A DNA stretch of 64,000 nucleotides, from contig JASEHM010000001.1 of assembly GCA_030018895.1 (NCBI GenBank), forward strand, positions 2,199 to 66,198. The letters run 5' to 3'. The translations under genes and the position numbers were made by a program. This DNA comes from Candidatus Omnitrophota bacterium (GTDB lineage Bacteria; Omnitrophota; Gorgyraeia; Gygaellales; Profunditerraquicolaceae). Under the pieces are notes generated by a model that worked only from the letters and a program-made list of their open reading frames with translations, had not been told where the DNA came from and did not search any database. Shown here piece after piece: positions 36,001 to 63,000 of this stretch (position 1 is the stretch's first letter; every line of letters begins with the position of its first letter).

Positions 36001-39000
36001 TTGCGCATTCACCAATTTGTAGAAAAGGCCTTCAAGAGCACAGGTGAAATATCCAAAGGTATTATCCATGTGAATGAAGAGGGCTTTGTAATAGACACAG
36101 ATTTAGATAAAGCCAAACAACTTCTTGCCAATAAATACAGGCTCTTAGTAGAAGACCAGTATATTCTTATGAACACTGCCTTTGCCATATTAGGCCCACT
36201 TGCCCTTGTGCGCTGGGCGATTCTTTCAGGCATTGACATAGATACAGAAGGTAATTTTATCATTACAGAAAAAGCCAAGGCTTCTTACAACACAAAGAGC
36301 TTTTATGACTTAGTCCTAACCTATGGCTCAAGTGTAGATACCTTTGGTGATTTAGTGCCTCCTATGGGCGAAGACTTAAATATCATTGACTTTATCTTCT
36401 CTGTTGGCACCAAACAGCTTGAAGAGGCCAAGAAGAAAATCCACGCTGAAGCCTTACCTATCATAGAAGACATGGAAGGTAGGCTACAGGATTTACGCCG
36501 AGACTTCAAAGAAGATAGTTTCTCCTTGAAAAAATTAGAGGACAGTTTGAATAGCCTCTTAGAATCTCTTAAGAAAAGAATCCAAGAGGTTCAGGATGAG
36601 AAGACTGTTTCTGTGTTAAATGTCTGTGTATCTAGCATCTCTCAAATCCTGCTGCGTCAGATGCTCATTGAGGTTTTACGCCGCGGTGGCGCTGGCTCAA
36701 AAGCATGGGCTATACCCATAGAGGGTGAGTGGTTGGATACTGGAAGAACCATCGAGGAAGCACAAATCATTCTGGCCGAGGGAAAAGCCAACAGGCAGAT
36801 AGCCTCGGTGTTTGACTTTGAGAAGTCCATTGCCGCAAAGACCAATGTAGCAAGCCACTCTTTTGTCAGCATCATTGAGGCAGAACCTAAATCTCAAGTT
36901 GCCACAGATTCCATTCAGATTGCCTCTTATCTGAAAGGCAAAATTCATATGGACTCCAGATCTCAGGTGCACCTTGTAGACTGGCAAGGCGATTTACACC
37001 TCAACTCAGACGTGGTGATGTCTGAGGCAACCACCAGATATCAAGAGAAAGAATGGGTCGTGCACCTGCTCTGGGGATTACAGGATGGAGAGACCAATAA
37101 AATCAAGACCCACATAGGCCGTTCCTTAGAGGAATGGTTCACTGAGTTAAGTATTGACATAGATAAGATTTGGCCTCCTGCAACTGCGCATCTCTTAAAC
37201 ACTGCCAGAATCTTCCCTGGCTTAAGTCAGCAGATTTTAGAGCAAGGAAAGCAAATAGATGACTTGGATAGAGAGCTCTTTGACTCTATGAATGATATCT
37301 GGGGCTTCTTACAAGGACATACTGCCCCAGTTCCTGTTGCCTGGCTGAAAGCTTTAGAAGCAGAACGCCTCTTCTCTATGACTGATGCCTACAGTAAACC
37401 CGCCACTGAACTGATGCAACAGAGAAGAGAAGGATTGATGAGGAAGAAGAAAGCAGAAGAGAGACAGAATGCAAAAGGCTCGTCTCCGGTAACGACTTCT
37501 TCACCTATTCCAACTCTAAATAATACTCAGCCAGATCAAATAATAAATACCGATAATGCGAACAACGAGCGCTTTGGCATTGCCAGAGAGCTTACCAAGG
37601 GCTTGGTAGCAGAATTACCCCAAGTATTAGGTAAGGTAGATATCTACGAGTTACTTAAAGCAGCTAATGGCATTCTGATTCTTGACCGTAACCGCTCACC
37701 CACTGACATAGATGCTCATGCGGATAAAGAACGTAACTCTATTTGCGTCACTGTGCGTTCTGATGAAGACTTCCTTAATTTATCTATCCCAGAAGTAGCT
37801 ACCACCCTTATCCATGGAGCCATAGAGCTTGCCACAAAACAAGAAGCCTTAAGACGTAATATCGATTGGGAACAAATCGCATCGCTTGCCCAACAAACTG
37901 CCCTTAACTTTGCCCAGAAATATCAAGAAGTCATTACCCACAGATATGACCGCTTGCTGATGAGACAAGATATGCAGGTTGCCTTTAAAAATGGCTGGCG
38001 CGTAAAGAAGATTTACCAGACTGCCTTTAACCATGTTCAGGCTGATATGTATGCCTCCCAGGTTAATCCTGAAGATTATCCTCAAGACACTGAAGTCATC
38101 CCTGTAGCGGACCCCCCTCCTTATTATAATAAGGTAAGGGCTTTTGGTAATGGCTTAGCTAACCTGAATATAGTAAGGAACTTTGTAGAAAGGCTAATCC
38201 AGGAATTAAAATTAGAGCCGGGAACCTATAATTTAGTAGAACTTCTGGGTAATACCTTAATTATCGGCTTGCACGGTGGCGGCCAATCAGCCAGGAATCC
38301 TAAATATACCCAGATTGGTAAATTTAATGGTTATCTGCCTATAAGGAGCTTAAACAAAGACTTACCCGCTACCCTGCAGGAAGAACTCCTGGTGCCAGCA
38401 GCGGTCTTAAGCAGAATCTATCCAGACAACTTACCCGGCTACATCAATATCTACGGAGATGCCTTAATTACCTTTAATCCAAGAGAAGTAGAAAAAATTA
38501 TTAAGGCTAATCCTGAAATGGCCCAGGGTTTGATGATCTTCTTAAGAAAAGTTCCTGCTCGCGAAGCTTCTACTTGGGGTGCAGGTGCCGTAGATGAATC
38601 CTTGCGCATTCACCAATTTGTAGAAAAGGCCTTCAAGAGCACAGGTGAAATATCCAAAGGTATTATCCATGTGAATGAAGAGGGCTTTGTAATAGACACA
38701 GATTTAGATAAAGCCAAACAACTTCTTGCCAATAAATACAGGCTCTTAGTAGAAGACCAGTATATTCTTATGAACACTGCCTTTGCCATATTAGGCCCAC
38801 TTGCCCTTGTGCGCTGGGCGATTCTTTCAGGCATTGACATAGATACAGAAGGTAATTTTATCATTACAGAAAAAGCCAAGGCTTCTTACAACACAAAGAG
38901 CTTTTATGACTTAGTCCTAACCTATGGCTCAAGTGTAGATACCTTTGGTGATTTAGTGCCTCCTATGGGCGAAGACTTAAATATCATTGACTTTATCTTC

Positions 39001-42000
39001 TCTGTTGGCACCAAACAGCTTGAAGAGGCCAAGAAGAAAATCCACGCTGAAGCCTTACCTATCATAGAAGACATGGAAGGTAGGCTACAGGATTTACGCC
39101 GAGACTTCAAAGAAGATAGTTTCTCCTTGAAAAAATTAGAGGACAGTTTGAATAGCCTCTTAGAATCTCTTAAGAAAAGAATCCAAGAGGTTCAGGATGA
39201 GAAGACTGTTTCTGTGTTAAATGTCTGTGTATCTAGCATCTCTCAAATCCTGCTGCGTCAGATGCTCATTGAGGTTTTACGCCGCGGTGGCGCTGGCTCA
39301 AAAGCATGGGCTATACCCATAGAGGGTGAGTGGTTGGATACTGGAAGAACCATCGAGGAAGCACAAATCATTCTGGCCGAGGGAAAAGCCAACAGGCAGA
39401 TAGCCTCGGTGTTTGACTTTGAGAAGTCCATTGCCGCAAAGACCAATGTAGCAAGCCACTCTTTTGTCAGCATCATTGAGGCAGAACCTAAATCTCAAGT
39501 TGCCACAGATTCCATTCAGATTGCCTCTTATCTGAAAGGCAAAATTCATATGGACTCCAGATCTCAGGTGCACCTTGTAGACTGGCAAGGCGATTTACAC
39601 CTCAACTCAGACGTGGTGATGTCTGAGGCAACCACCAGATATCAAGAGAAAGAATGGGTCGTGCACCTGCTCTGGGGATTACAGGATGGAGAGACCAATA
39701 AAATCAAGACCCACATAGGCCGTTCCTTAGAGGAATGGTTCACTGAGTTAAGTATTGACATAGATAAGATTTGGCCTCCTGCAACTGCGCATCTCTTAAA
39801 CACTGCCAGAATCTTCCCTGGCTTAAGTCAGCAGATTTTAGAGCAAGGAAAGCAAATAGATGACTTGGATAGAGAGCTCTTTGACTCTATGAATGATATC
39901 TGGGGCTTCTTACAAGGACATACTGCCCCAGTTCCTGTTGCCTGGCTGAAAGCTTTAGAAGCAGAACGCCTCTTCTCTATGACTGATGCCTACAGTAAAC
40001 CCGCCACTGAACTGATGCAACAGAGAAGAGAAGGATTGATGAGGAAGTTGAAGAAAACCTCATCCCCTATTTCCACCCCTATTTCTAACTTCTCAGATAT
40101 AAAGACATTAATAAAAGCTTGTAGAAATGCAAATCCACAGGCAAAAATATTTGTTCCAGAGAAATCGAGTTTTGGAAAACTCTCTTTAAAAGAAATTCTC
40201 AGTTTAACAACCTCCAGTTCCCTGATACTTTCCTTAGAATCTAGACTAGTAGCAGCCATCGCCAAGAAGAATTCTTTTATCCAAGGCTCCAGCCCGCTTT
40301 CAGAAGTTATCCTGCCTGGTTTAACGTGGGGATTTTATGTTTTTGAGATTCGCGAATCAAAGGTAGGTGGAATTGCCGATGTCGCTGAAGGCCTTCCGGA
40401 AGCAATAGTAAGGGCTAAGACGCTTGATGGAAAGCCTCATACAGTTTATCGGGTGACCCCGTATTATAGAGATATATTCACTATGACTAATAAAATTCGT
40501 TTGGAAGACCAGAAATTAGTAGCTCAACTATGCATTCCTTATCAGCACCAAATAATTACTGTGGATGTATATAAAAGATTGCATGTTTCTAATATGGTTG
40601 ATTATCTGCTTGTAAACGAAATATTTAGCCGCCCATATGATAAATCAGATACCAAGAATCAAACTGAATCTGAAGAAGAGGTAGTAATATTTAATATTGT
40701 TTCAGCAATACTCATTATTTTAGGGGAAACTCAACCTGATGTGCTGCTTCTATCAGATTGGCAGACAGGTTTACTGCTTTCCTATTTAGAAGAAAGTGTT
40801 TCAGAGCCAACCGCGATATTAAGGAAGGTTGTTGTTAAGACAGAGAAAGGCAATGTTTCTGGTGAAGAATTAGTAAACGAATTTGTACGTTTAAAAGTAT
40901 ATGAATGGATGATACCGATTTGTTGGATTAATAATGAAGCTTATAGAGGGCAATTTCCTGTAAAAAATAGAGCGGACTTTAAGGCAAAAACAGGATTAGT
41001 TTCTCAGCATGGCTTTGAGTATGCAAGATGGATTACCCCAACAAGAGAAAGCGAACAATTTATGATTATGCTTAAGTTAGGGATAGAAAGCACTAATCGT
41101 TGTGGAGGAAAAATAGTCACAGTTAGCCAGGCTTATGCCAGAGAAATTATGGGTATAAACCTTAAACCAGAAAATCATCCTGGGATGCTTCACGGTATTT
41201 TAAAAAGAACAGAGGTTACAGGAATACTAAACGGCACTCCTAAAGAATGGAAATACATTACGGATTTAAAACAGAAGAGAGAGGCGAAGCGGTTGTTACA
41301 AGAAATATTAGAGTTAGATAAGTTTGCCTCTGCAATGTGCGGAGGGGAAATAGAACGATTAAAGCGAAAAAATTTTTGCTGTTTGGGAAAACGCTTGCGT
41401 TTTAGTTATAGTTATCTTAGCTCCTTGCCTTCTGGCTCCTTATTATACCTCGCCGTGGCTGGTGGGATACAAGGCGTTGTTGGTTCAAGCCAGAGGGCAG
41501 GGAGTTTTTTGATAAAGGAGTTTATTAATAAGGTAAAAAAATTATTACCACAAAAAGGAGGCGCAGGATGTATAGACTCAGAGAGGTGCAGATTAGGTCT
41601 TTTGAGGTGTTGCAGGAAAACAAGGGAATTTTTGTTCTGGCAGGGTTTCCGGGTTGGCATTCTACTTATGATTTCCTTATTCAGTCTAATGGAGAAGTTA
41701 AGGGAAGAACACACGATAATTGGCAGCTCCTTACAGATGAGACAGCTGAGATTATTAAAGGGAAGTTTAAAGAGGTACTTACAAGGAATTGATTTAGCGT
41801 TTGAAAGCAGCTCGGCGAGGTTGACGCAGGCACAGAAAAGAGTTACTAACTCGCCGTTAAGGTTGGAGAAAGAAACAGAAAAGATAAACAAAAATTTGAA
41901 TGAGCTTACGAAAAATGCAGTGGCATTATCAGACCAAAAAAAATTTTCAATTGAGGAGGATATACTTCTTATTGAGACTAACCTTAAGGAAATAGGGCGG

Positions 42001-45000
42001 TTGGGGTCTTTAGCAGAAGATTCACAAAAAATAGAAAATGACATTGATTTTATTCAATTACTCAATGAGGTAATAGATGATTTTAAAAAGAGGTTTCCTG
42101 ATATTACTTTTGTGGTTGAGAATAAGGCAGATGAAATTAAATTACCTGGTATTCGAAAAATAATAGAACACATCTTAAGGGAAATTTTCCAGAACAGTGT
42201 TAAGCATGAAGGTAAACAGATTAATATAGAGATTTCAAGAACAGAAGGCAAAATAGAGATTAGTATAGAGATTAGCATAATTGATAATGGTGAGGGTATT
42301 TCTAAAGAGAAACTGGAGAGGATTCGTAAAGTTTTGGCGCAGGCAGATACAAAGCAAAGCGAAAAAGAGAGTAGGGGCAGAGGCCTTTCTTATTTAAATA
42401 AACTTCTTTATGAGTACACTTTAATTGAAGAAAACCTAGAAATATATTCTGAAGGTGAAGGCAAAGGCACAAGGGTAAGATTCTTTTTACCTTTAGCTCA
42501 AGAAAAATACAGGGTGCCAGATATTCATAATCGGATAAAATTTATTATCCATGAGATAAACAATATTCTATGTACAGTGCAAAAAGCTTTTTTAAATGAA
42601 AAAAATACTGTGTTGGCAGATGCAACCAAAGGCACAATTTTAGTAGTGGATGATGAAGAAAACATTTGCGTCATATTACAAATGTGTTTCGAACAAGTTG
42701 GTTATACGGTTGTTACTGCTGCCACAGTAGAACAAGGATTGGAGACTTTCAAAGAAAGGCAGAAAGAAATAGGATTAGTTTTAATAGATTATACATTACC
42801 TGGTGGAGATGGATTACAATTAACAGGGAAGATTAAAGAGGTTTCTAAAGATATTCCTATATTTATTATGACAGGAAGGAGTCTACGCGAAGAAGATATT
42901 TTAAACTCAGGAGCAAAAGAAGTAATTCCTAAGCCTTTTAAATTTGAGGAATTACTAAAAAAGGTAGAAGAAGCGGTAACAGTTCAGCGTTCAGAAGTAA
43001 ATCAGGGTGTCATTCTCGCCCCCGTTTTCACGGGGGTAAACTCCAGCGGGAATCCAAAGATGGTTGACAGAATGGATGCCAGTTTTCACGGGTATGACAA
43101 AAACGGGAGGCGAGAACTTCCGGAAGCTGAACTGTTACAAGAAGCGGTATCTTCAGCAGTAGAGATTGTTAAAATGTTGTCATTGCGAGCCCGCCACACT
43201 TTGTGGCGAGGCGAAGCAATCACTTTTTTGAGATTGCTTCTTGCTTCGGTTTCGCCTCGCAATTGCAATGACGCGAAAATGGATTTTTTCAGCGTTTTCC
43301 TAGAATATCACTTGATACAACAAGCCTTAAAGGGTTTTTTCGGTCGACTTAATTCAGACTTTTCTAAACAACTTTTAAGCTCTCGCCAAACAATTCCTTT
43401 AGCAGGTTCTCCTTTTACAGAATTAGTTTCTAGTTCTTTGTTTGTTTTTAGTCTAACAGAGGCTATTAAGTTGATTCAGATTTTTGTTAAGGAGAAGGAA
43501 GGGGCTGAGATTGGAGAGAAGATAGGGAGCCTTAGTTCTGAAGAACTAAACGTCCTTACGGAAGCGATTATTGCTTGGAAAGAGTTGGAAGAGATTGAAG
43601 TAGGAGAGAAAGAAAAGAAAAGATTCATTGATATCTATTCTTCTAATTGCCAGTTCAGTAGTTTTGTTGGTTTTTTAAAAGATGCTATGCAGTCAAGGTT
43701 AGTAGAGCAGAGGGCAGAAAGAGAAAGTATTCTTTATGAAATTGTCGAGGAAATTGGGAAATTAGAGGGGGTTAGCCCGGATAAAATAGAGGAAGAGTTC
43801 GCTAGATTTAAGATGAAGGCATTAGAGGAGCTTCTTAAGGCATGGGGGTATAGCTATGAGATAGATGAGGAAGATAACTTAAGCCTTATTTGTTCAACAG
43901 ATGGACTAAAGGAGTCGAGTTATAAATTAACACCGCGAAAGCCTAATGACCCGGAAAAGAGTTTTCTTTGGGATTTTCTTAAAAAGTATTGGGAGCAGAA
44001 AAATACCCTTTCTGGGCAAAAGAAATTATTGGAAGGATTTAAGAAAAAATTGCCTATAGAGATAGTAGAAGTAATTATCTGGGATGGCGTTTTTCGGGGG
44101 CTATGGATTAAAGATAGATTCGCCTTTCTTAAGAAATTTTATCCGGAAAAAGTAGATAATGGAGTTTTAGATCAACTTGCCTCTGGCCATATCTTCTCAA
44201 GATTACAAAATATTTGCCTTCCTCAAAATTTAAAAGACGACTTAACTTGTTATCAAGGAGTTTTGCCTAAAGAGCTTATTTTTCTCCTTCCTCTCCCGGG
44301 AAAAGGAAAATATATTTATATGTTACATAACTGGGCTCAGGCCAGTATTGAAAATAAGCAATTTATCCCTCTAATTAAAGAAAAAAAGATTTTTTTCTAT
44401 TTGTTTAGGGCAATAGATGTCATTATTAGAGAAAAGGAAAAGATAAAACAAAGGATAACTGATAGCCGTACAGGTTTGTATAATGCCTGGTATTTAAAAG
44501 AAGAGCTGGAGAGACAAATAGGTTTGGCCAAAAGGCATGATAATCCCCTGGCGATATTAATGCTGGACATAGATCATTTTAAGAATTTTAATGATACATA
44601 TGGCCATTTAATAGGCGATATGGTTTTAAAGTATGTTGCTGAGGTGTTTAAGAGGATGGCAAGGAAAACGGATATTGTTTGCCGTTATGGCGGGGAAGAA
44701 TTTATGATTATCCTGTCTAACGCGGATTTAGAAGGAGGGGTGGTTGCCGCAGAGAGAATTAGGGAGGCGGTGAAAGAAATGAAAATTAAAAATATTAATG
44801 AAAAAATAACTATAAGCATTGGCGCAGCTTCTTTAGATAAGAGTTTAAGAAGTATCTCTGACTCTGAACAATGCCAAAAGGCATTTATTAAAGAGGCTGA
44901 TCAGGCGGTTTATATAGCCAAGGCAAAGGGGAGAAACCGAACAGAATTTACTATAAAACAGGTAATCCCTTATTTAGAGCCGGAAGAAGAATTATTTCCT

Positions 45001-48000: not shown

Positions 48001-51000
48001 CAGGTAAATGCGATTATAAAATTAGGCCTTTTTGGTGCGGGTTGGACATTGCCAATAAACTTATGGAAATCCGGATGGGAAATATCGTATAAAATGGAAA
48101 ATAATCTTCCTTTAGAAGAACAAATTGTTTTGCATGCGCTGGAACAGGCCATAGAAGAAGAGTATCAGAGGCTTTGTAAGAATAAGGAACTCTCTACTAG
48201 AAATATAATGAGTATTCTTAGAAATGAAAAGATTCAGATCAGAGAATATCTTCCTGATAGCTGGAAGGATTTAGCTAATGTGTATAAAGGGAGCCTGAAA
48301 AATATTTATTGGCAGATTTTTGAAAAAGTAGAATTTCCTCATTATTTTCTTAAAGATATAAGGCCTTTGTGTGTCCTGTGTTTTTATTATCCGGATTCAC
48401 TATATCTAGCAGATGCTTCTTTAAAGGGCAAAATAGTTAAAAATGATGTAGTCGGTTCTGTTGAGCAATCTATGAATAATTTTAGGAATACCCATGTGGG
48501 AATGGTGGTTGAAACAGAAAAAAAAGAGTTTTTTCATCCAGCAGGGACGCAAAAGATCGCTTTAAAGGAATTTTTAAAACAAAAATATGGCTTACAAAAG
48601 GACTCTTCATTAGATGCCCTGCTTATTTATTCCTTATATCAAGGAGAATACAAAGAGATAATATTAAATGAAGAAGGGGAGGGATTTTGTTTTGTTGATC
48701 AGGCTATTAATTGTCCTGTTATCTGGAAGCCTGGGGTATGTATAAAAGTAATTTCTCAGATTGTTATTCATGAATTTGCAGGAAAAGCAAGAATAGAGAA
48801 TTTAGCTAAAACTATTGATGACGACAAAGAAGGATTTAAGTTATGCGCGGTAATAAGGCTGGATGAAAAAAGAATCGAAGAGCTGTTTAATGAACAGGGC
48901 AACAACAGCCTAATAGATACGCCCCCTAAAAAAACAAATTCGCCGCTATATAAACAGCTGCCTTGTTTTTCGTCTTCTCCTGTAAGAACTTTCGCACATA
49001 ACCCTGCTGAAGAGTTAAGCGGTGAGGGTTCTAAATTAGAAGAAGGTATAAGAGAAACTGGTGAGTATAAAAAAAGAATGAGGCATATTAGAATAGTGGA
49101 TTTTAAAAGAGAGATTATAAAAAAAGATTTTATGAAAATAGATCCGGAATTAAAAAGCGCTCAAGTGGATGAGATAAATATTTTGGAATTAGGAAAAGGG
49201 CAGGAGTTTATTTTTAAAGATGTTTTGCCTATAGGTGAACTTTATGAATTATGCAATATTTCGGCTCGTTTGGCTGCAAGGTCTTTGAGATATTTAAGTA
49301 AGAATAGGAATAACTTTAATATTTTTAGAAAGGTATTGGCTGATTTGCAATGGATACGGAGAATTTTAGGAAAAGATCTTAAGTATTTTTATTCAGTATC
49401 TTGCGCAAGGACAAAACCTGGTCAGGCTGGATTGGAGCCAGGAGAGATACTTGGTTATGGAGAAAATAAGATTTGCATGGTTTATTTGCCTTTAGAGTTT
49501 TCCCAGGGATTAATTACTTCTGGCTGGATGGGAACAACAATTGGGTTTTTGTTTGCCAAAGATATAAAAAACTTGCCGCCAGGATACTTTTTTAAGGTAG
49601 TAACTCCTAAGAAGATAAACCTAAGCGAGATTTTAAAAAAACATTACGGTAAAAAAGATTTCTGTTCTTTGGTATTTAAGGAAATAAAGAAAGAAATACC
49701 TGAATTTAGGCCGCTTGTTTTGTTTAGAGAGTACAATCTTCCCGTAATAGAAGCGATATCCGGAGAAAAGGTAGAAGATTATTCAGCATTAAAGAAACGG
49801 CTGGAACGTAACAAGGGAAGGCTTTGGTATAAGGGTATGCTTCTGGTGCTAAATGATGATTGGTCAAGATTAGATTTAGGATTAGGGGAGAAGGTTAATG
49901 GGGTTATGGGTATAGGAGGCATGCCTCAGGCATTGTGGTCAGCAGCGCAAATATTAAAATTAGAAAAAAAGAATTTAGATTTTGCCGGTTTTTTTGTAAC
50001 TGAAAAAGGCGGGTTGCCCTGGGAAAACACTTTTTTACTTGAAGAAAAAGAAATATTCAAACGATATGGAATAACCTTGGATACAGTTTTTAAGGCAAAA
50101 GAGTTGATTCCCTGCCTGCCAGAGGAAATATTAATGATTCTGAGCGTAATAACCCCTTATCGTTTCAAAGATAAGATTATCCCTGGGCCAAAAATAGATG
50201 ATAGCGGAAAAGAGACAGTTCATATAGTAATGGTAGATATAGATGGAGGTATATTAGACATCCCTGTAACTTATACAACAGGGATTTGTTTTAATCGTAA
50301 CGTTAAGAAGATTTTAAGCCTTGCTGAATTTGGTTTATTTTTTCCGGGGCTAGAAGAACTTAAGAAACTAAAAGGCCTTAATTTGTCTTTTATAGAATAT
50401 CGAATATTAAGGTATTACCTCTTAGGATTATGGAGTTTAAATTTTAGCCGAAAAGACCCTAATCAAAAAGCTTTAAAAAGTTTTGAGCAGGCCATTGAAT
50501 TAATAATAAAACATAACATTAAAATATTCAAAGGGTTGAATTTATCAGGAAAAATAGCCAGGATTTACCAATTTTTAAGAGATGAAGAAGACAGAAAGGG
50601 AAATCTTGAGAAAGCCTTAGAGTCTGCTGAGCTGGCAGTTAAGCATAAAACAGATTTGGAAACAGTGAGGAGGTATTATCGTTTATTGTTAAAAGATGTT
50701 GTATCCGGCTATAAAAATGAGAGTGATTTAGAGAAGGGTTTAGAAAAGCTGTCCCAGCTCAAATGTCCTGGCTTAGAAAACAAAGATAAAGATTGTTTAT
50801 TTTTTGCTTTCTTGCTAGAGACATTCCTTTTAGAAAAGCATCCTCTTGAACAGGTTAAAATTGTAAAGGGGCTATTAAGATATAAGCAGGAGCAGATAGG
50901 AAAAGATGGCAGATTAGTAGATTCATTTTTAAAAAATAACAACCCGGGCATTATTTCTTGGATTAATAATCTTCAGGAAAATTTTATGTTTAAGATATTA

Positions 51001-54000
51001 AACTTTCGTTTCTTGGAGAGGCTGGGATATTTTCCTGTTACAGATACTCAATTGAACCATTTTTCTCGAGAAGTTCAGGACTTACTGGATGCGCATCTGG
51101 AGTTGGGCATGATGCCTCAAGAGGCAGTCTTTTCTTTAGGAAGCATGTATTATTTGCAAGGAATATTTTTGCTGGCTTTAGATTATAAAGAAATGGCAAG
51201 AAAAAATATCAACAAGGCTATTGACCAATTTGGTTTAATTATATTTAAAAAGGGGGGTCCTTTTGGGCTGATGGCATACCAATTAATTCTAGAAATTCAT
51301 CAAGAGATGCCGTTATTCTTTGGCCAGCTTATTCACAATGGTGGAATGGAATTAACGTTAGATGGGTTAGCTGAAAAGTATGGGAAACATTGTCCTGAAG
51401 AGATTATAAAAGGCCAGACAGAGTTCATAAAGAATTTGACAGAACAGTCCCAGTCGGAGAATGAACTCGCAACTTCTTCTTCTGCAAGGAGTTGTGTAGA
51501 AACGGTACTATTAAATTCACTAAACTCTTCAAGCCCTGTTAAGCGGGTAGGTCCTGTTGGATCCGTCTCGAAATTTGAGTCTCTGCTACGAAAAGAGTTG
51601 GCCGCGATGAAGGATTCCGGGGGAACGAAGTTGTACCCGTCCAATGTGTCGCGTCAGAATAGGGTCACGATTGCGCCGTGTCGGGTGGATAGGGTCACGA
51701 TTAGTAAAGAGGCCCGGGAGATATTCAAAAATGCAAGGCCCAAGTCCAGCCAGCCGTCGATCATGTCGGAAAAAGACCTTAACGGCAATCTTGATTTCAT
51801 ATCGTCCCTGTGTGAGTTCGTAAAGCAGTTTATAGAGGTATTTTGGACAGTGAAATCTTCTGAGGATACGGATCACGAGAACAAGGATGGCGTTTCTGCG
51901 TCTTCTGTCAAGGAAGGATCTTCTTCGGTCGTTTATTCCAGCAGTCCGAAGGCTTCTTCCTCATTTAAGCAGGCACGAAGCCGCGCTCCGCCCTTTGTAG
52001 TTGTGTTATTAATAGTTCCCTTCATATTTTGTGAAGGAGAGACAAGGAATTTATCAAAATCCCTGCCCCCATCTTTACCTTCGTTTTCAAAGCACAGTAG
52101 AGTTCTTGAAACAAAATCTCTACCCACATCTTTATCTTCGTTTTTAGATCATAGTAGAGTTCCTCCCCTTTCAAATTACAGTGGAGTTCTTAAAAACGCG
52201 CGCATTAATTCAAAAGATCGATTTGGAATAAAGGCATGGACAGCCTATACAATGTTGGATGAGATTACTAAGAAGCTGTATTCTGAAAAAACAGTATCAG
52301 AGCGTCGTTTAATAAATAAATACGTATTAACCAATATTTATCATGAATCGCTTTTGATATATAGGAGGCCTATATATCGTGGCGGGACTGAGCGCGGCTT
52401 GGCTCAAATAAAGGTGGGCACTGCCAGGGATATCCTTGAGAGGCTTGTAAAGGGAAAAGCTAATTGGGAGGAGTTTATTGCAGATATTAGCGGTTATTCC
52501 TTCTATGCAGACCTTTTAAACGAGAATAATGCTGTTCTTGGCAAGATGTTAGAAGATAATGATGGGTTTAGTTTTATTCTTTCAACAATATATAGTATGA
52601 ATAGGTTAGATAAGGAATCTCTGCCTGTAGATTTAGAGGGGATGACAAAGTGTTGGGCCAATTATAATGGGATTGGGAAAAAGCAAAGAACGCCTCCAGA
52701 GGAAAAAAGATTAAAGGATTATAAAGTTCATGCAGAGATAATTAAGCCTATTCTTGAAAGAATCATTTCTTTAGAAAGGTTCTTAAATTTTGAAGAGTTT
52801 CTGAATCCTCCAAAAAATATTGGAAACTGTTTCCGTCCCAATCGGGAAACTGTTTCCAGCGCAATCGGGACAGTGGGATGCAGTGAAGTTGACATAAGCT
52901 GTTCTGCTTTGAAAATGAAGGGGTTTGTCGGTTCGCCAGTTAGCCGGTTGCTTGAAATTGCCGGCTCGCCGGTGAAATATAGCTTGTTAGTTGATATGTT
53001 GTTAATACTTGTTGATTTTGATGGTTTTTGCAAGGCAGGGATGGAAGATGTTCACGGTCTTGAGGATAGGATTAGGGTCTCCTCGCCCGTATTTTCGATA
53101 CCGAAAGATACCGAAGATTTGGATTTTGCTTGGAATTTGATGGAATTAAATGCTTTTAACCCCGGATTAGAACATAAAATTTCTTTTGTCTCCAGTCCAA
53201 TTTTTAAAATGCGGCCGAAGGTAACAGTTCAGCGTTTGGAAGTTCCAAGCGCTGAACTGTTACCTTCGGAGACTGAAATTGGGGGTAAGAAAAGGAAGGA
53301 AGAGAATGATCTTTTTATTGAGATGGATACGTTAAAAAAGAAATTGATGGGTTGTCTTAGAAAAAGTCCTTTACTTGCAAAAATATTACAATGGATTTTA
53401 GATGAATTAGAAAAAAAGAACAATAATAATGGAATCATAAAAAATAAACTGTCTTTTTTTAGTCCACACCAGAAGCGTAAAGTAAAACAAGAAATTTTTG
53501 CTTGGATGAATAAGGAGCATTGTGAAGTGGCAGCCGAGTTTTCTACGGAGTTAATTTTTCTAGTTGTGGATTTGGTTAAAAATATAATCTTTTCTATAAA
53601 AAACGAAAAAATAAATAAAGATAAATTAGAGGAGATTCAGTCTTCTTTGGATGAGATTGTCGCTTTGAATAACAAGATTGAGAAAATAGCGGAACTGTGG
53701 CGAAAGATAAAAGAGGAGATAGTGGAACAAAATGTAGGCATAGTAACATCTATCGTGACTAAAAACTATTTTAATGGGGCTTTATTCTTTGAGGAGCGGA
53801 TACAGGCAGGGTTGATTGGGCTAGCTGAGGCTGTAGAGAGGCACGACTACAGAAAAGGTATATTATTTTCTACCTATGCTGATTGCTGGATTAAGCGGGA
53901 AATACTAATGGTTATGCAAAAGGAGAGTAGTGATATCTGGATTCCCGTGTATATGCAAGAGAAGCATACAGGGCTTGAGAATAAAAAGACAGAATTAATC

Positions 54001-57000
54001 CAGAAACTTCTAGGAGACCCGACAATTGGCCAACTTGCTCAAGCCTTAGGATGGCCAGTTGAGGAAGTAAAAGAAGTTTTAAATGTTCCGATGCATGTAG
54101 TTTCTCTATCTACACCTGTGGGTAAGGAAGGAGAAACTTCTCTTGGCGAGCTTATAGAGAGTCCACAGGCACGGGATTTGGAGGGTTCAATCATAGAAGA
54201 ATTGAGTGCTGAACGGCCTGAAGAGACCCTTAAAAAGGCCTTGCATCAACTTCTTCTCATCGATAGGCTAATTGTATGTTTGCATAATGGCTTGTCTATT
54301 ACTGGAGAAGTAGTTAGCAATGAAGAAATTAATCAACTTAAATCATCTATTAAAAAAGAAGCACTAAATAAGGCTATTATGAACATGAACCCCTTAAGTT
54401 ATCGCAAGATTGGTGAGCTATTGGGATACACCGGGGAACGCATACGTCAACTCAAAAAACAAGCGTTACTAGATTTAAAACAACTAATAGGGGGAGGTAT
54501 AATCTTAACCGATAGTATGATACTTAGCAAAGTTAAGCCTATTAAGAAGATCCCTGGTGTAATCAGAATTTTAATGGAAGAAAAAGGAATTATTATTCCA
54601 TCTATGGTTGTTAAGTCGTTAGGGATTTCTATTCCGACACTTACTAAATATATTAAAGATAATCCTTCTGATGAGATAAAAGATTTGATGAGGCAGCTAG
54701 GTATTCATAATCAGATTCTTCGGGCGATAAAAAGGCTAGAGAGGCTGCCCAAAGCGAAACAAAAACTAATTACGGTAAAGATGCTTGTTCAAGAAATAAA
54801 GTTTTTTTCTTTAACAGACATAGAAAAAGCAAAAAATGAAATAAATAAACGTATAGAAAAACATCTCGGGGCGAGAAAAGAAATATTAAAACATGTGGGA
54901 GCGGTGCCAATATTCAATTGGGAAACTGTCAATTGGGAAACTGTTTCCAGCTTAATCGGGACAGTGAGACGCAAGGTCAAAATCGCCGGCTCGGAAGTGG
55001 ATTTATCTCTAACTTCTTCTTCCGTAAGCAGTTCCGTTATTAATTCAGCAGGCCAAAGCAACAACGCGCCGGAAAAAATTGAAATAATTGAATTTTCGTT
55101 TCTGAAAAATACTATGGGTTGTATCATAGAAGCTGGTAAAAGAGATATGCAAAAACAGAAGATTGAGAAAATTTTGATTTTGCGTAATTTAGGATTTATT
55201 TTAAAGGAACTAAAAGAGTTAAAGAATATGAATGCTATTTTGAATAAATGGGCCATAGAAATTATTATAAGGTTTAGAAGACAGCTTATTGAAGAATTTA
55301 GAAAAACAGAGAATTCTATTTCTAATGGCAAAGAAAGCAGTAATGACATAAATATTAAGGAGCAGTTTAAAAAAATAAATATTAGAGAAAAAATAATATT
55401 AAATTTTTATTGGGTAGGAAAGAATCGGTGCTGGAAGATTTTAGAAGAAGGATTGAGTAAGCCTTGGTTTATTCCTGATATTGGAAGAGTGGATGAAGAG
55501 CTGGTGCAGGAGAAAAAAAGAAAAGAGGAGTTGATAGCCACCATCTTAGGGCAGTTACAAACAGGCACAATGATTCAACGTCAGATAGAAGAGGAGCAAG
55601 ATTTAAGACAATATATACCGCGAATAAAGATAAAGATTGAGTCTGCGGAAGAAAATCTGGGAGAGGCAGCAGTATGGGCAGAGGAGGTTTTCGCAAAAGG
55701 AGTAGATAGTTTTAAAAAAGATGCAGATACAGTGGAGAATAGGCAACTCAAGGCATTTGCTATGGAGTTAGGGGGCGTATTGGAGAATATGATTTGGCTG
55801 GGAGTTCGTGCTTATGATTATCAAGATGAAGAGACGATAGATTTTATAGGTAAGGCCAAAAAGGAGGAAATGATTAAAGATTTAGTCAAAGGATTGATAA
55901 GTAGTATTGATCAAGGCCTTAGTAAAGAGCCTGAAATTATGCAATATACTTTGCAAATTATAAGACAATATTTGCAGGGGCTTCTTTTAGAGGATTTAGC
56001 CTTAGGATATGAAAACGTGCTTATGCAAAAAAGGGTTAAGTATGCATTAAGAGAAGCATTTATAGGTTTCAAGAGGCTAAAAACAGAGATGCTTGATTAT
56101 CTGCATGAGCTTTTGAAAGAAAAAAAAGAAAAAGTAGATGTTAATAAGTATTTCAAAGAAGGCATTGAAAGAATGCTTCAGGGTATAGGAAATTATCTTA
56201 TTAATAAAGTAGAATATCAAACAGCGCATTATGAAGGAGAAGACTCAGTGATTTTAAAATTGAATTATATACCTACTCCACAAGAATTTTTAAATTGCTT
56301 TATAAAGGTTTATGGCAAAAAATTGGCTGCAATTATTACTTGTGCAGGAACGCCGCAGGCACATTATGCTTTGTTGGCTGAGTCTGAAAGAATACCAGTT
56401 TTTATTATTGCCAGGGAAGATACGGATTTAATTAAACAAAATGATAAAGTTGTGATTTTTAGTAATGGAGAGGTGATTATTAATCCTAGTCCGCAAACAC
56501 AAGACGAATTTGCCGTTGCACAAGGAGTTCAACAAAAGATTGACGAATTTTATAGTGAAAAGGCGCCGGAGTTGTTAAAAATACCGGTTGAAATGAACGC
56601 TGATTCTAAAGATGAGATAGAAGTAGCAGTGAATATTGTCCAGGGTATTGGCCTGGTAAGGACTGAGAACTTATGCCAGGGAATTTTACCTTTTTTAATT
56701 ACTGAATGGCAGGATTTATTCAGGGAAATTTTAAAATCTGCAAAAGGAAAAAGAGTTACTTTTAGAGTCATTGATTATCAACCGGATAAAAAGCCTTTGC
56801 CTTTTGCTTATCAACGCTACCTAAGGCCTAAATGGTGGAAAGATCATCCCCTGGGCAGAGCAGTGGCATTACAGATATTACAGGCTCTCATCAGATTGGG
56901 AAAAGAAGGGTATGGTTTTTTTCGAGTAATGTTTCCTATGGTAGAAGATGTTAGTGATTTGCAGGCAATAGAGCAGATAATAAAAAAAGCGCAAGAGAAG

Positions 57001-60000
57001 GAAGGCCAAGGGACAGAGCTTACTATAGGCATTATGGTAGAAACTAAAAAGGTAGTTAATAATATAGATCTAATAATTAAGACTATAGAGAAAATCCCCG
57101 CAATAAAGTTTTTTAGTGTTGGATCCAATGATTTAATTCATTTCTTTTACAATATCCACAGGGATAATCTCCAAGATTATAAAAAGTATTATGAGGGGAT
57201 TGCCCCCCCGCTTATTCTCAAAAAGATTTTAGAAGTTGTAAAAAAAGCCAAGGAAGCCGGTTTAGAAAGTAGTTTATGCGGAGACTTAGCAAGGAATGAG
57301 CAATTCTGGCTGGTCTGGTATTATTTTAAGCATAATTATAATGTAGAAATTCTTTTAAGTATGCCGGATATAAAGATCGCAGAGAGATTTAAGGTTTGGA
57401 TAAATTATATTGATAATCATTTAGAGCAGATACCATGCTGGAAAAACTTAACTGATTTATTAAAGAAGATGTTTGTTTATAAATATGATGATGAGATTGA
57501 TGAAAAATATTGGGATGCGTTAAAGAAACAACTAAATGCTGTGATTAGCGAAATACAAGCGGTTTTAAATAAGGCTATAGAGAAAGACAAAAATGTAAAG
57601 ATAGAACTAAAAACAAAAGAAGAACTGCCTAAAGCAGAAGAGGAGAAAAAGTGGTCTGATAATGAAGGTAATATAATTGGGTTATTAAAAGGTTTCCATG
57701 CTTATGCCCAGGGTCATCTAAGTGGTTTGATTAACTCATATTGGGAGAAAGAGTTGCGAGTAAAGATAGAGTGTTTAAAAGAAGAGCAATGGCAGGAGTT
57801 TTATGATGGTAGCGTTTTATGGGACATATTTGATTTTATGGAAGCCGAATTTATTGTGGGTAGTTCTAAAGAATTTAGATTTAGCGCATCTGAGCATTGT
57901 TCATTAGGCAAAGAAAAAGCAGACTCTCTTTTGAAAGGGTTTTTAGATGAGTTTGTAAAACAGCTTTGCGGAAAAGACGATGAATTTGGAGGCAGAAGGT
58001 TTGATTTAGAGGTTCAAGAAGAAGATGCTGTAAAAGAAACAGAACAAACGCAATGTAATAAGCTCCCCCTAGTAGAGATAGTACGTATTTTTGAGATCAA
58101 TCCAGGCAAAAAAGCGGCTTCTTCTCTGATGTCGCTAGAAAAGCATGTGGTGGATATAAAAGAGTATGCGGATATAATAGCCAGGCTTTTGCTTTGCAGT
58201 ATGAAATATAAGGGGAATAATAGAAACGAGTTGAATTGCTATTCTCTACGCGCTGATCTTATTCAAGTATTACAAGAAAAGCTTGGTTATGACAAGATAA
58301 AAAATATAAAAATTATAGGAATGAGCGGTGGGCGTAAGAAGTTGCCTCTTATACCAATAGATACGGAATTGGGGGTAGGCCCTGAGAAAATATATTACTT
58401 AGGGTTGCCGCTTGATAAATTAGGAGGATTGGGAGACCCTCATCAGAAAGGGCCTATTACTGGCCATGCATGGTGCTCAAAAAAAATAAATAGTTTGCCG
58501 GATTGTTATTTCCTTAAAATTGAGGTTGGTTTTAACAAAAATGCTGAAAAATTAAAAGCTCTTATCACTAATAATATAAACCCATGCATTGGAAAGGTTG
58601 ACTGGGATTCATTAGCTAAGGGTTATCTTGAATTTTGTTTAACAGGATCAGGTAAATCCATAAAAGATCTTAAGATAGGGGTTTTGTGCCGGCCTTATAA
58701 CCGGCAGTTAATTGAGGCATTGATAAGGGCTTTTAAAGCCAAAGGCGCAGGTGTTCCAATTAAAGATTATGTTCGGATAGCCAAAAAATGCAAGAGACAA
58801 GGTTCATTTAATAATGGCGGGATTTTTCTTTATCAAAATGACGATTGGTCAAGTAGTATAGATATGGATGAGAAAGATGGTTTAGATGGCTTTATGGGAA
58901 TAGGCGGTTATCCTGAAAAAGGAATGAGCAGCTTGATAATTAGAAAAAAAGGTAAAGGGGCATTGACTGGCCGTTTTATCAGCCAGGAGTATATTGAAAA
59001 AACAAATAGAGCGGTAACTGCGCCAGAACCTTTTGTCCTGACGAACTTTAGTCCTGGGGAGTTGGCAAATTTTGATAAAACGGGTATTAAAACTGAAAAT
59101 AAAGAGCATCTCAGGGTTTTTACTGACAAGGATATTATCTCTGCGGATATAAAGGGAGAAGATATTATTTTACTAATTGGGTTAATCGGAGATGCTGCTT
59201 ATTTTGGCTGTCGTATTTCAGGAATTACTGTGGATGCTCGGAAAGGATATATAAAAGCCAATCTCTTAGAGATTAATGAGAAAAAGAAGGCTTGTGTAAT
59301 TGAAATAAAATACCCTTTAGTATCTATTCAAAAATATTTAAAAGAGCTTTCTTATGCAAAAGATCCAAAAGTTTATAAAAAGTTAGCTTTTGCCTGCGCT
59401 GAAGCCGGGGACTATCATCTGGCAAATGAATATCTTAAGAAGGCTCTCAAAGACAAAGAGTCTCAAATATTATTTTACTATATTAGGGGTATGAACATTC
59501 AGGCGCAGAGTAAAATAAACCCTAATATTAGGGCATTAAGACTATATATGAAGGCTTTTGCGATTTGGAAAAAGCTGGTTCCTCAAGGACAAGCAGCGCT
59601 TGAAGAATTAGGTTTGGACCTGATAAAAACGATTCGGCGCACCCGGGTTTTCTTAAGAATTCAATACCAGCTTAAAGGAAATTGGCTTGAAGCAGTAAAG
59701 CATTCTTGGCCAGCAGTAAGGATTTCACAAGAGGAGTTTGAAACCATTTTTCAGCATAATCGGCTTGTTTTAATGTCCATTGTTGAAGAATATTACAGGC
59801 TTATTAAAGATGTAGACGAATCCAATATTAAAGCCAAGATTGAATTAGCCTATGAAGCATATCTTAATTGGGAAGAAAAGGCAACGAATAAGACCAGATC
59901 TTGCATGGAGGATTATAGAAAATTTTTAGAATTCTATCAAGGAGATTTCTTTGTCTGCTTGCTTTTTGAAACTGTTTTTAGGGGATTTAAATCTTCTGAA

Positions 60001-63000
60001 AGGGCAATTATTTGTTGGAAGATTTTGTATATGAAATTAAATAAAAACTACCGCGAGGATTTATTATGGGTTATGCGGAATGAGTCTGAAAGAAATAACC
60101 TTATAAATGATTTAAAGCAGACAATAAATTTTACCGATGAAGAAAAAGAAGATTTTAGGATTCCTTTAGAAGAAGGGATATCTACTCGTACGAGCAAAAA
60201 AATTCTTTCCCAATTATTACGGTTTTATAGTAAAGAACCAGTTATTTATTTAAGGAACCAGGAAGTAGCTTATAGTATATTTAGGCAATATTTTAGCGAA
60301 GCGCTGTTTTTAAGAATCTTTGGTCATTTTCAGAGCAGCCAAAAACATGTTGAAAAAGCTATCCATGCCTGCGAGCAGATATATAAGGTAAAGGATTTAG
60401 GCCTGTTTATGACAACCTTGCCAAGGGATACAATCAATTTTTATCTAAGATTAGCTGATATAGAAGAAAATTCAGATAGAAAAAAACAATTCTTGCAAGA
60501 GGCGCAAGGATTGTGCTGCGGGTTTTTAACTGGTGATTATTTTAAAGAGATTATAGCAGAAGCTGATTCCCAATTAGCTTCTAGAGAGTTTATTAAATTA
60601 ACAGCATGGAAACCTGAAAGTTTGTGGGAAGGCCTTGCAAAAACTTCATTAGAAGGACTGCTTAGGAAAAAAATTCAGCTATATGTTTTTGATATGAATG
60701 GGGTCAAGAATATTCAGAAAAAGATAGAAGAAATATTATTTAAAAAATCAATAATATTCTTCGGAGGGACAAGCAGAAGAGCAGGCCTTAAACCACTTCG
60801 CAATTATCCTGTTTCTACTAATATAAATATAAAAACATCAGAAATAAATCAGGATAATGTTTTTTTATCTATTGACCTAAAGAAAAAGGTAGACTATTTT
60901 AAGGGAATAATTTTTTCTATCTTACTTGAAAAGAAATGTGAAGAAAATTGGGATATAAAAGGCAAAATAATTCCCTATTTTCAAGGGCCCTTGATATTAA
61001 TAACAAAAAAGAAAGAGCAAATTCCTGAAGTATGTAATGATTTGGTAGAAGAATTACAGGGGGCCGTTGAAAATCAATATACAGTAGAGACAACAAGTAT
61101 TGGTATGGAAGTTTCGTCGATTGACCGAGGAGATGTACTGCTTTATTTAGCAGAGCAGATTGCTAATAAAGACAAAAAGAACCTTATAGATTTATTAGTG
61201 CAAACCTTTGTCGTAGGCAATAGCCGCGCAGATCTATTTATGCTCAATATTGTAGCCAGTCATGGCGGGTTAGCTATATTTGTGGGCCAGAATATTCCAG
61301 AGGGCCTATCTAAAAAGGTTCTTGTAATTCCGCTACAAAATCCTCAAGGAATAGAATTTCTTATAGAGTTAATTGCTAAGGCCTCCAACTCGGCAGGTAT
61401 AGAAAATCATCTCCAGAGCCTGCAAAATTCTGTTAGTGAAGAGGAAACTGTTTCCAGCGCAATCTTGGCAGTGGGATGCAGTGAAGTTGACATAAGCTGT
61501 TCTGCTTTGTTGAAAATGAAGGGGTTCGTCGGTTCGCCAGTTAGCCGGTTACTTGAAACCGCCGCCTTGGCGAAGGGGGATGGGGGTCAGTTCTGTTGTA
61601 ATTCTTTGCCTATCAATGGGGGAATTCTGGGGACACAAGACTTAATTCGGAGTACTGATTTGCCATCCGCTATTGCTATCGCCTCGCCGGTGAGGGATTT
61701 GTTTGCAACTTCTTTTCCCATAATAGATTCCGCAGAAACGACACTAAATATACTGTTTTTATCTCGTTTAGGCGCTCTGCGTACAGGTACAAATGCCCCG
61801 CCATTAGTTGTTAATAATGCCGCCTTTGTCTCGGTATTATTTCGCACCTATTTAGAGACCTCATCACAACCTACCCCTTCTATTACTATTCCAGAACTTA
61901 TTGTCTGCTATTTATTACTTGCTACTATTAAGGTATCCTTTGCTTCGTCGGCGGTGGAGAATTTATCTACAAGTTTTTCTTTCGCAGGCATTTTTTTGAC
62001 TATTAAGAAAGTGTTTAAAGGGTCGAAGATAATAATAGATAAGGTTATTGGAGTCGGCGAAAATGGATATAGAAAAATAGAAAAAATTATCTGGCAATTT
62101 TTACAGAAAGCTTGGCAATGTATACAGAAAATTCCGGTCGGCTTTGCGCCGGACAGTGAAGGCCGGGTTACCGTTGATGCTCTCATAAAATATCTTTCTG
62201 TGGCTCCTTTCGCAGTAGATGCGACGTTGGAAGCCTTCTTTTCGCAATTGAAAAATCCCAAAGCTCAGGCAGCAATTGCTTCCGGTGGCCTTGGTTTTCT
62301 TGCCGGAGAAACCCTTAATGCTTGGGTCAAGGTATCTCAGCGGGTAGTCGGGTTTATGCCTCTTTATGAAGGTAATATTAACTGGGATAGTGAGGCAGGG
62401 ATACAGCCGATTATCGGGTCAGGCGGCAAACCGCTTACTCTGGAAGTCAATTTTAAGGAGGTCGGGCAATTACAGGAGAAGCCATATAAGGTTAGCTACT
62501 ACATTATTAACGCCAATGGCACTCCGGTAATCCTGGCGCGCCAGCCGAAGATTAACTACGCGCTTTATCCTTGTGATTCGGATAAATATCGGCAGATGGC
62601 TTTCTTAGGTAGGGCATATACGGAATTTTTTAAATATTTAGGCGTTGTCCCGGATATCTTGCGCTTCAATGAGGCGCAGGTATTTTTCCTTCTTACTGCG
62701 ACTGATAATGATGTTGATTGGTTTGCTCGGGAGAGAGAGAGAACTAAAACCGAAAGCCGCAGCGTTCATGAGAATACCAAATACATCCTTTTTACCACGC
62801 ATACCCCGGAAGTAGCCGCTTTACCGAGAGAAAACGTAGGCCGGTTAAAGAACCTTATCGGTAGCGGGATGATTCCGAAGAAAGCAGATGGAAGTGATTA
62901 TGCGGATGGGGAAGAATTGGATTTTGTTCATCATTTAGTTAACGACTCGCGGGTCGTCGTTATCAATGGCGTTTCCCAGGAACACGGGGAAGTAACTAAG

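Follow-up and report, generated by a model that had tools for sequence, protein, structure and literature searches.

What kind of element is the short repeat that occurs three times inside one giant open reading frame (ORF) of a Candidatus Omnitrophota bacterium, a repeated piece of protein or a piece of DNA in its own right? The ORF lies on contig JASEHM010000001.1 (assembly GCA_030018895.1), of which we analysed a stretch of 64,000 nt, positions 2,199 to 66,198 of the forward strand, from here on called the window; coordinates are counted from its first nucleotide. We consider the repeats to be copies of a repetitive extragenic palindrome (REP) type element, belonging to a lineage-wide Omnitrophota family associated with a REP-associated tyrosine transposase (RAYT) of the HUH/Y1 type, and we put the probability of this reading at roughly three in four. 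Overall, the element belongs to an ordinary class and its host gene is the unusual part; the one real loose end is the reading frame of the embedded units.

A first-pass annotation made from the sequence alone had reported three copies, and all of them were found again in the window, in frame, at 52822-52975 (c1), 54917-55000 (c2) and 61443-61575 (c3). The basic unit is 23 nt long, GGAAACTGTTTCC-AGNNNAATCG; its two arms, GTTTCC and GGAAAC, pair with each other and leave AGNNNAATCG as the loop, and where units overlap a 13-nt 'palindrome' results. Exact matches to GGAAACTGTTTCC are located at 52822, 52845, 54936 and 61443. With up to two mismatches allowed, both strands of the window together contain 10 matches against 1.62 expected, a number that none of 100 shuffles reached. 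The copies consist of the following parts (scores in bits come from a position weight matrix, PWM, described below):

52822-52844, plus strand: c1, REP unit 1, GGAAACTGTTTCCGTCCCAATCG, codon phase 0, read GNCFRPNR; 41.5 bits, the best score in the window.
52845-52880, plus strand: c1, REP unit 2 with terminal half-site, GGAAACTGTTTCCAGCGCAATCGGGACAGTGGGATG, phase 2, read ETVSSAIGTVG; 21.4 bits.
52881-52975, plus strand: c1, 'part B', ...CSEVDISCSALKMKGFVGSPVSRLLEIAGSPV, about 95 nt that align with c3 only.
54917-54931, plus strand: c2, truncated unit, AATTGGGAAACTGTC, a 15-nt tandem copy of the next 15 nt; 5.4 bits at 54898.
54936-54971, plus strand: c2, REP unit with half-site, GGAAACTGTTTCCAGCTTAATCGGGACAGTGAGACG, phase 2, read ETVSSLIGTV; 22.9 bits.
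54972-55000, plus strand: c2, tail, AAAATCGCCGGCTCGG, matching the 3′ end of c1, GAAATTGCCGGCTCGC.
61443-61478, plus strand: c3, degenerate REP unit, GGAAACTGTTTCCAGCGCAATCTTGGCAGTGGGATG, phase 2, with the CGGGA core mutated; 1.2 bits, assigned through the 95 % identity to c1.
61479-61575, plus strand: c3, 'part B', a copy of 52881-52975 with an inserted TTG codon.

The palindromes of c1 stand 23 nt apart and so are read in different codon phases (GNCF, then ETVS). In c2 we found a 15-nt tandem duplication (NWETV NWETV), which corresponds to the 23-nt unit minus 8 nt, so that the reading frame is kept. Copy c2 shares 44 nt with c1 at 88.6 % identity and, in addition, a 14-nt piece at the 3′ end, AAATYGCCGGCTCG. 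It may be internally deleted, as it had been described, or else be a copy of greater age that has diverged.

The similarity between c1 and c3 had been given as about 95 % over about 125 bp. This figure applies to a core of 111 nt (5 differences, 95.5 % identity); over the full 125 nt, which include a 3-nt TTG indel, the blastn identity is 91.2 %. Of the five core differences, three fall close together at those REP positions that are conserved best (61464-61469 in c3, 52866-52871 in c1), where AATCGGGAC is changed to AATCTTGGC, and this could reflect either one complex mutation or selection against an intact RAYT site in the gene. The similarity sets in abruptly, with its left edge exactly at GGAAAC, and the adjoining 60 nt on each side are 22 % (left) and 28 % (right) identical.

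Synonymous and nonsynonymous differences between c1 and c3 were counted by the Nei-Gojobori method. Their proportions are nearly equal over all 43 codons (pS 0.095, pN 0.092), and in a 37-codon core they amount to pS 0.076 and pN 0.035 (2 synonymous and 3 nonsynonymous changes). Conservation is therefore not concentrated at nonsynonymous sites. The GC content of the copies is 0.51-0.52 compared with 0.378 for the window, and only 2.2 % of the 125-nt windows reach 0.50. No Pfam family found in the window covers the copies, and a search of 5.8 billion sequences returned no protein homologue of the 401-aa segment around c1.

A module of about 700 aa without Pfam match precedes c1 as well as c3; its two copies, at 49237-51222 and 58153-60363 (24 % amino acid identity, E 1e-22), are an ancient internal duplication. 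We considered c1 and c3 as positional homologues inherited from this old event and rejected the idea; the two modules end 542 and 361 aa before the copies and nothing in between can be aligned. In any case, the 95 % DNA identity of c1 and c3 needs a recent event. Similar pS and pN, an old module with only 24 % identity, the outlying GC content and the missing homologue of the 401-aa segment together exclude an ancient protein repeat under peptide selection. That tandem units are read in shifting codon phases, in c1 and in another Omnitrophota locus (L012, see below), likewise argues that no peptide is being conserved. The Cys-containing peptide quoted in the first-pass annotation was reproduced by in-frame translation of the copies and is incidental. 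We also rejected the template and variable repeat pair of a diversity-generating retroelement, because the mismatches between c1 and c3 are not adenine-specific (G>T, G>T, A>G, T>C, G>A, T>C and others).

The motif is not confined to this gene. We scanned one genome per GTDB species with the pattern GGAAACTGTTTCCAGNNNAATC, which has 19 specified bases and for which about 4 chance matches are expected. The scan returned 20 loci, nine of them in different Omnitrophota metagenome-assembled genomes (MAGs) and one in a MAG labelled Planctomycetia, and a scan of metagenomes added further loci of Omnitrophota type. At least nine other Omnitrophota MAGs thus carry the motif, in coding and non-coding DNA and in both orientations. 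By the exact 19-base pattern, several separate sites per MAG were recovered in PCWB01, JAHIKK01, JAFGHF01 and JAPLLS01 (in loci of up to 8 kb). Matches in other phyla were isolated, one per locus, none scored with the PWM at the matched position, and they look like the expected chance background. The REP unit is also present in the Planctomycetia-labelled MAG (L018/L039, GC 0.59), where one copy has an internal 3-nt deletion; the family may extend beyond Omnitrophota within the Planctomycetes-Verrucomicrobia-Chlamydiae group, or the contig may be mis-binned.

Outside the window the loci usually show either two to three overlapping tandem units with a 23-nt period, ending in the half-site GGGAAA(C/G)nG, or an inverted doublet. 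It is only the 5′ part of the window copies, about 40 nt, that belongs to this lineage-wide family. Non-coding units occur in short spacers, as hairpins or tandem arrays and in both orientations, for instance at these positions:

L008/L037 (3284-3340 in L008) and L033 (1840-1900), two species: unit in the 69-nt gap between dapB and an aminotransferase gene.
L001 (1191-1260) and L032 (1620-1680), two species: unit just 3′ of a DEAD-box helicase gene.
L017: unit between the archease gene and rtcB.
L019: unit 3′ of clpB.
L020: unit 3 nt after the end of rsmE, and immediately upstream of a miaB-like gene.

The doublets in spacers have the hairpin form TTTCCCGATT-n5-GGAAA-CTG-TTTCC-n5-AATCGGGAAA. 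The strongest fold was predicted for L032 (-34.6 kcal/mol, z-score -5.5), where the hairpin is followed by T7, and the doublets of L001, L008 and L033 have z-scores of -4.4, -4.6 and -3.3. Given the likeness of the L032 structure to an intrinsic terminator, co-option of some copies is conceivable. Covariance models of Rfam 15 gave no match on the motif in the window or in eight external loci, and searches of the literature for the motif strings retrieved unrelated primers only. We also considered parS, matS and Noc sites, CRISPR repeat termini and extracytoplasmic function and sigma-28 promoter consensus sequences, and dropped them; the order and spacing of the half-sites do not fit, and the RAYT association explains the data.

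This association is apparent in L020, where oppositely oriented arrays (4616-4693 and 5276-5357) bracket an ORF of 164 aa. The encoded protein matches Pfam Y1_Tnp (E = 1e-13) and passes the NCBIfam equivalog model NF047646 REP_Tyr_transpos (81.9 bits, cutoff 80), while failing the IS200 model NF033573 (16.5 bits, cutoff 55). Its sole PDB match is the E. coli TnpA-REP structure 4ER8, and the HxH (HUH) and catalytic Tyr regions are aligned. The transposase has more than 500 homologues, many of them labelled Omnitrophota and typically one per contig. Four further loci (L044-L047) were fetched by the identity of their proteins to the L020 transposase (57-66 %), without consulting the DNA motif. 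One of them, L044, shares the rsmE/miaB-like position with L020 and is thus syntenic, and L047 and L019 belong to one MAG. In all four loci the gene is flanked by inverted units with the 23-nt period, which read AATCGGGA(A/C)A(G/C)TGTC upstream and the complement of this downstream. Inverted units therefore flank a single Y1 transposase gene in all five loci of relatives, which is the defining arrangement of the REP/RAYT system (PMC3337134, PMC3116915, PMC5581495).

The window copies were linked to these loci by a 36-nt PWM, built from 12 units flanking the RAYT genes of L044-L047 only and used to scan both strands of the window. The three highest-scoring sites in the 64 kb were 52822 (41.5 bits), 54936 (22.9 bits) and 52845 (21.4 bits), that is, c1 and c2. 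Among 200 codon-shuffled windows the best score averaged 0.4 bits (sd 4.0) and never exceeded 19.2. Moreover, AATCGGGACAGTG of c1 unit 2 is identical to a RAYT-flanking unit of L044. Copy c3 reaches no more than 1.2 bits, owing to the change from AATCGGGAC to AATCTTGGC in its conserved core, and its identity to c1 over the core indicates that it is a member of the family. The first-pass suggestion of a mobile or gene-conversion unit rather than an ancient protein repeat is thus supported, and neither of the two conditions that would have refuted it, copies in this gene alone and conservation concentrated at nonsynonymous sites, applies. The copies behave as a DNA-level unit, belong to a REP-type family associated with a RAYT and include a recent DNA-level copy; as to transposition or conversion, either may have produced that copy.

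REPs, their REPIN doublets (REP doublets forming hairpins) and RAYTs are well described (PMC3116915, PMC3337134, PMC5581495). Like the known examples (TnpA-REP 4ER8, Pseudomonas REPINs), the Omnitrophota unit is a short imperfect palindrome, its doublets are long hairpins in spacers near gene 3′ ends, its arrays are inverted around a single Y1/HUH gene, and the transposase, syntenic in L020 and L044, passes REP_Tyr_transpos. Unlike them, the family is new in sequence, belongs to a phylum for which apparently none had been described, commonly forms overlapping direct arrays with a strict 23-nt period and has no GTAG tag, and the window copies are intragenic, translated and not REPIN doublets. 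REPs may carry the terminal tags GTAG or CGTC, and CGTC-tagged REPs are reported to be without a dedicated transposase (PMC3733652). In our case a GTAG tag is absent. The units lying outermost around the RAYT genes have GACG/CGTC ends, 6 of 8 starting with (A/G)GAGACG (CGTC on the other strand), in contrast to the inner units and the window copies. These outer ends may be a novelty.

Intragenic REPs were catalogued by Di Nocera et al. 2013 and are most abundant in Opitutus terrae and Rickettsia conorii (PMC3733652). As in our window, single or grouped units are contained completely in ORFs and lengthen the protein, in frame, by tens of amino acids. What differs is the host, a giant multi-enzyme ORF, and the non-REP segment of about 90 nt that was copied along. 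A second parallel is provided by the Rickettsia palindromic elements (RPEs), the classic example of translated selfish palindromes in genes, reportedly first described in Science in 2000. Each RPE family encodes one conserved peptide (PMC10969869). RPEs are likewise selfish palindromic DNA, of about 100-150 bp, lying in frame in protein-coding genes with one reading frame used, although the analogy is functional only: RPEs come from an unrelated lineage, have unrelated sequences and are not known to have a transposase, whereas the core of the window copies is a 23-nt REP unit with a cognate RAYT. Three features appear to be new: a REP/RAYT family in Omnitrophota whose overlapping arrays keep strictly to the 23-nt period, the occurrence of translated units of this family in the giant genes of at least six assemblies, and the uniform reading frame of the embedded units.

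The surroundings of c1 and c2 could be compared with P0121, a 925-aa protein of an Omnitrophota MAG with CYTH and sigma-70 r2-r4 domains, the only close relative of the sigma-70-like module of the window. The features concerned are:

53308-54912, plus strand: sigma-70-like module between c1 and c2, 47 % identical to P0121.
51526-53307, plus strand: extra block of 1.78 kb absent from P0121, between segments that are adjacent there; it holds c1 and a 55-nt near-perfect palindrome.

Residues 155-184 of P0121 correspond to nt 51436-51525 (60 % identity, E 5e-4) and residues 184-760 to nt 53308-54930 (47 % identity). At the c2 start, or no more than about 5 nt from it, the alignment deteriorates; here the window reads ...KEILKHVGAVPIF followed by NWETV, and P0121 reads ...KEILKHVGYAPILTGITIFNEIE. 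P0121 is without both c1 and c2. On this comparison, the two copies lie in lineage-specific or junction sequence and not in conserved protein, which fits insertion into permissive linkers. The comparison isolates no clean REP-sized insertion and leaves room for an origin by gene fusion, discussed below.

The 55-nt palindrome in the extra block (53215-53269) has arms of 27 nt that are 96 % complementary and 1 nt apart, and it is in frame (...KVTVQRLEVPSAELLPSE...). Its predicted RNA fold is very stable (-53.7 kcal/mol, z-score -8.7). It is situated 240 nt 3′ of c1 and 39 nt before the homology to P0121 resumes, and probably represents another embedded palindromic element or a recent inverted duplication.

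The course of events that we propose starts with REP units, perhaps moved by the RAYT, becoming embedded in permissive, non-conserved linkers of the giant ORF. There they would simply be translated, as the sense frames have no obligatory stop and the ETVSS-x-IG reading is hydrophilic; ETVSSAIGTVGCSEVDISCSALK is an example of the peptide expected if units are translated by read-through. Such read-through would probably be harmless and the units would have no function in the protein. Since c1 and c3 also share about 90 nt of adjoining DNA, one of them was copied recently from the other, in either direction, as a discrete segment of about 125 nt. The copy event, between 52.8 kb and 61.4 kb, might have been the transposition of a piece bounded by REPs, or else a gene conversion over a short tract, with the REP as its nucleation point, after which c1 and c3 would have drifted neutrally. 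What looked like an odd repeat would then be familiar selfish DNA, and the suggestion of a special Cys-rich peptide motif is removed.

In other genomes, too, we found units inside very long open frames, in five more assemblies (L002, L004, L012, L013 and L041), and 10 of the 11 giant-ORF units are on the coding strand. The protein flanks of these units show no detectable similarity, save for trivially overlapping windows within one locus, so that common descent of the sites is not apparent. Usually at least four of the six frames of a unit are free of stops, and chance alone is therefore unlikely to explain a uniform frame. In L012 the tandem units run through three frames. Further repeats of extragenic type follow the REP unit in frame in L013 (~4250-4420, minus strand, ...VLSLSKGVVDGPLDSRG) and in L012 (~6200-6300, minus strand, ...LPGLTGQ...MDSRFRGND), which suggests that giant genes of Omnitrophota commonly carry translated repeat DNA.

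Several results weigh against our reading. One concerns the reading frame. Among leading or single units in giant ORFs, all ten, from six genomes and with non-homologous flanks, are read in one frame, (x)G GAA ACT GTT TCC or ETVS (c1 unit 2, c2 and c3 of the window, L002, three sites in L004, L012, L013 and L041). Random insertion does not predict this, and it hints at selection on the encoded peptide or some other constraint. The simplest account, by analogy with the RPE families of Rickettsia, would be selection for the most innocuous, hydrophilic reading. Second, units 1 and 2 of c1 form the only intact REP hairpin in the window, the whole c1 segment folding with a z-score of -2.0. Copies c2 and c3 fold no better than shuffled sequences (z-scores +0.37 and +0.25) and the REP core of c3 is degenerate; as REPs, these two would have to be in a state of decay. 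None of the window copies has the left arm, TTTCCCGATT, that the doublets in spacers possess. Third, part B of c1 and c3 (about 85-95 nt) has no relatives in any fetched locus or protein database, and the PWM found no inverted REP on its minus strand. Without such a unit, and with c3 not folding, c1 and c3 are not canonical REPIN doublets. We had considered this form on account of the degenerate half-sites GTTTGTCGGTT and GTTAGCCGGTT and the pairing of GCAATCGG with CCGGTTGC, and rejected it; the external copies of L001, L008, L032 and L033 do have it, with two inverted REPs and a short spacer.

Furthermore, neither a target-site duplication nor an empty site was seen for the window copies, and the RAYT association is known from the loci of relatives and not from the genome of the window itself. 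Finally, one PWM match of 27 bits was found among background loci of about 100 kb in all (in L005), so scores near 21-23 bits are supportive and not decisive alone. The argument is carried by the 41.5-bit site, the exact 19-base match and the clustering of the sites.

The best of the competing explanations, which we still judge unlikely, is that the giant ORF grew by fusing neighbouring genes and swallowed their spacers together with the REPs, so that the copies would mark former gene boundaries. In ordinary Omnitrophota loci REPs do sit in very short spacers between co-directional genes, the window copies lie between different functional modules, and c2 starts at most about 5 nt from the end of the homology to P0121, a protein of normal size. 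However, P0121 runs 165 aa beyond the position of c2, and no trace of its N-terminal part was found beside any copy. A related possibility, c2 as the spacer between two tandem P0121-like genes, was rejected as the N-terminal 160 aa matched significantly neither the sequence before 51436 nor that following c2 or c3. Copy c1 lies inside the 1.78-kb lineage-specific block and not at a clean boundary. Moreover, c1 and c3 are 95 % identical over about 111 nt compared with 24 % for the nearest paralogous modules, so at least one copy is recent.

Rather improbable, in our opinion, is a function of the copies in cis. They might, for example, be bound by RAYT or some other protein, form a hairpin that stabilises the mRNA or causes attenuation, or act within the gene as a terminator or processing site, through which parts of the transcript of more than 64 kb would be expressed separately. 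The position of units is kept across species outside giant genes (L008/L033 and L001/L032), a hairpin with a T-run resembling a terminator is possible (L032), the window copies are upstream of enzyme modules, and the coding-strand orientation of the giant-ORF units would also be in line with such a role. The window copies themselves speak against it, as they are without the left hairpin arm, c2 and c3 do not fold better than shuffled sequence, the conserved core of c3 is mutated and no Rfam family was found.

With similarly low confidence one could go further than our reading and regard the REPs as selfish DNA that is able to code and has adapted to giant genes, each entry being in the harmless frame of a hydrophilic linker (ETVSSPIGK), with the REP/RAYT system creating or marking module breakpoints. 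The pointers to the breakpoint idea are c2 at the end of a homology, c1 in the 1.78-kb block next to the 55-nt palindrome, the extragenic-type repeats beside the REPs in the giant ORFs of L012 and L013, and the CGTC-like ends of the RAYT-flanked units. If true, REP/RAYT would be one engine by which Omnitrophota genes grow to tens of kilobases.

That ETVSS-x-IG-(K/T) is a functional peptide, for example a linker, cleavage or docking site, and that the DNA similarity is its by-product, we find less probable still. The single frame shared by the ten giant-ORF units from six genomes, in spite of non-homologous flanks, is what this explanation would account for. However, identical DNA also occurs on the flanks of the transposase gene and, in either orientation, in non-coding spacers, conservation is equal at synonymous and nonsynonymous sites, the 23-nt distance puts tandem units into different frames (c1, and three frames in L012), and the 401-aa segment around c1 has no homologue. 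An artefact of the assembly or the sequencing, for instance a chimeric join or a repeat that was collapsed, can be practically dismissed: although the window holds a 2.6-kb tandem duplication at 99.9 % identity, a type that assemblers sometimes mishandle, the copies have a length of only 83-154 nt, are not identical to one another and leave the 64-kb frame open, and the motif is present in many independent assemblies.

For the REP-type elements of our preferred reading, the simple 23-nt signature would be usable in annotating Omnitrophota MAGs. That giant Omnitrophota genes seem to tolerate and translate extragenic-type repeats bears on annotation, alignment and ideas of gene growth.

The host gene itself can be described as follows:

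1-64000, plus strand: giant multi-enzyme protein of Omnitrophota type, recognised by the stop-free frame and the Pfam domain map.

The plus strand of the window is a single open frame (frame 1) of 21,333 codons without stop, open at both ends of the window, and the remaining five frames contain more than 700 stops each. Along the ORF, Pfam identified Helicase_C, Peptidase_M23, NTP-transferase/fucose pyrophosphorylase, Glyco_transf_5, HATPase_c, Response_reg, GGDEF, Sigma-70 regions 2, 3 and 4, PEP-utilising enzyme and Glycos_transf_1. Multi-enzyme giant genes ('Archaeovorin') of Omnitrophota have been described in two bioRxiv papers (10.1101/2023.11.21.568195 and 10.64898/2026.06.07.730766). 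The domain set given there matches that of the window ORF (HATPase_c, GGDEF, REC, PPDK/PEP-utilising, GT1, helicase); palindromes, hairpins, REPs or dispersed nucleotide repeats inside giant genes are mentioned in neither of them. An Omnitrophota origin of the window is in line with this domain architecture, with the source of its closest homologue P0121 and with where the repeat occurs.

The window contains other repeats. A second in-frame family is located at 23637-23786 and 42990-43139, with 90 % nucleotide and 72 % amino acid identity (pS 0.09, pN 0.11). Of its 15 differences, 13 are at codon positions 1-2, and the changes are mixed and not confined to adenine. It is a hairpin-type element (...VIPxPVFTGV...MDARFHGHDK...), and an element of the same type (...MDSRFRGND) adjoins the REP array in the giant ORF of L012; a literature search for the peptide strings of this element type gave nothing. 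The segments 34843-37452 and 37444-40056 form a tandem duplication of 2601 nt with 99.9 % identity, which doubles the NTP-transferase/fucose-pyrophosphorylase module and is either a very recent event or an assembly issue. Short in-frame tandem repeats with periods of 33 and 60 nt, 69-81 % identical, and a pair of 29-aa repeats flank the Peptidase_M23 domain, at 21900-22072 and 22456-22749.

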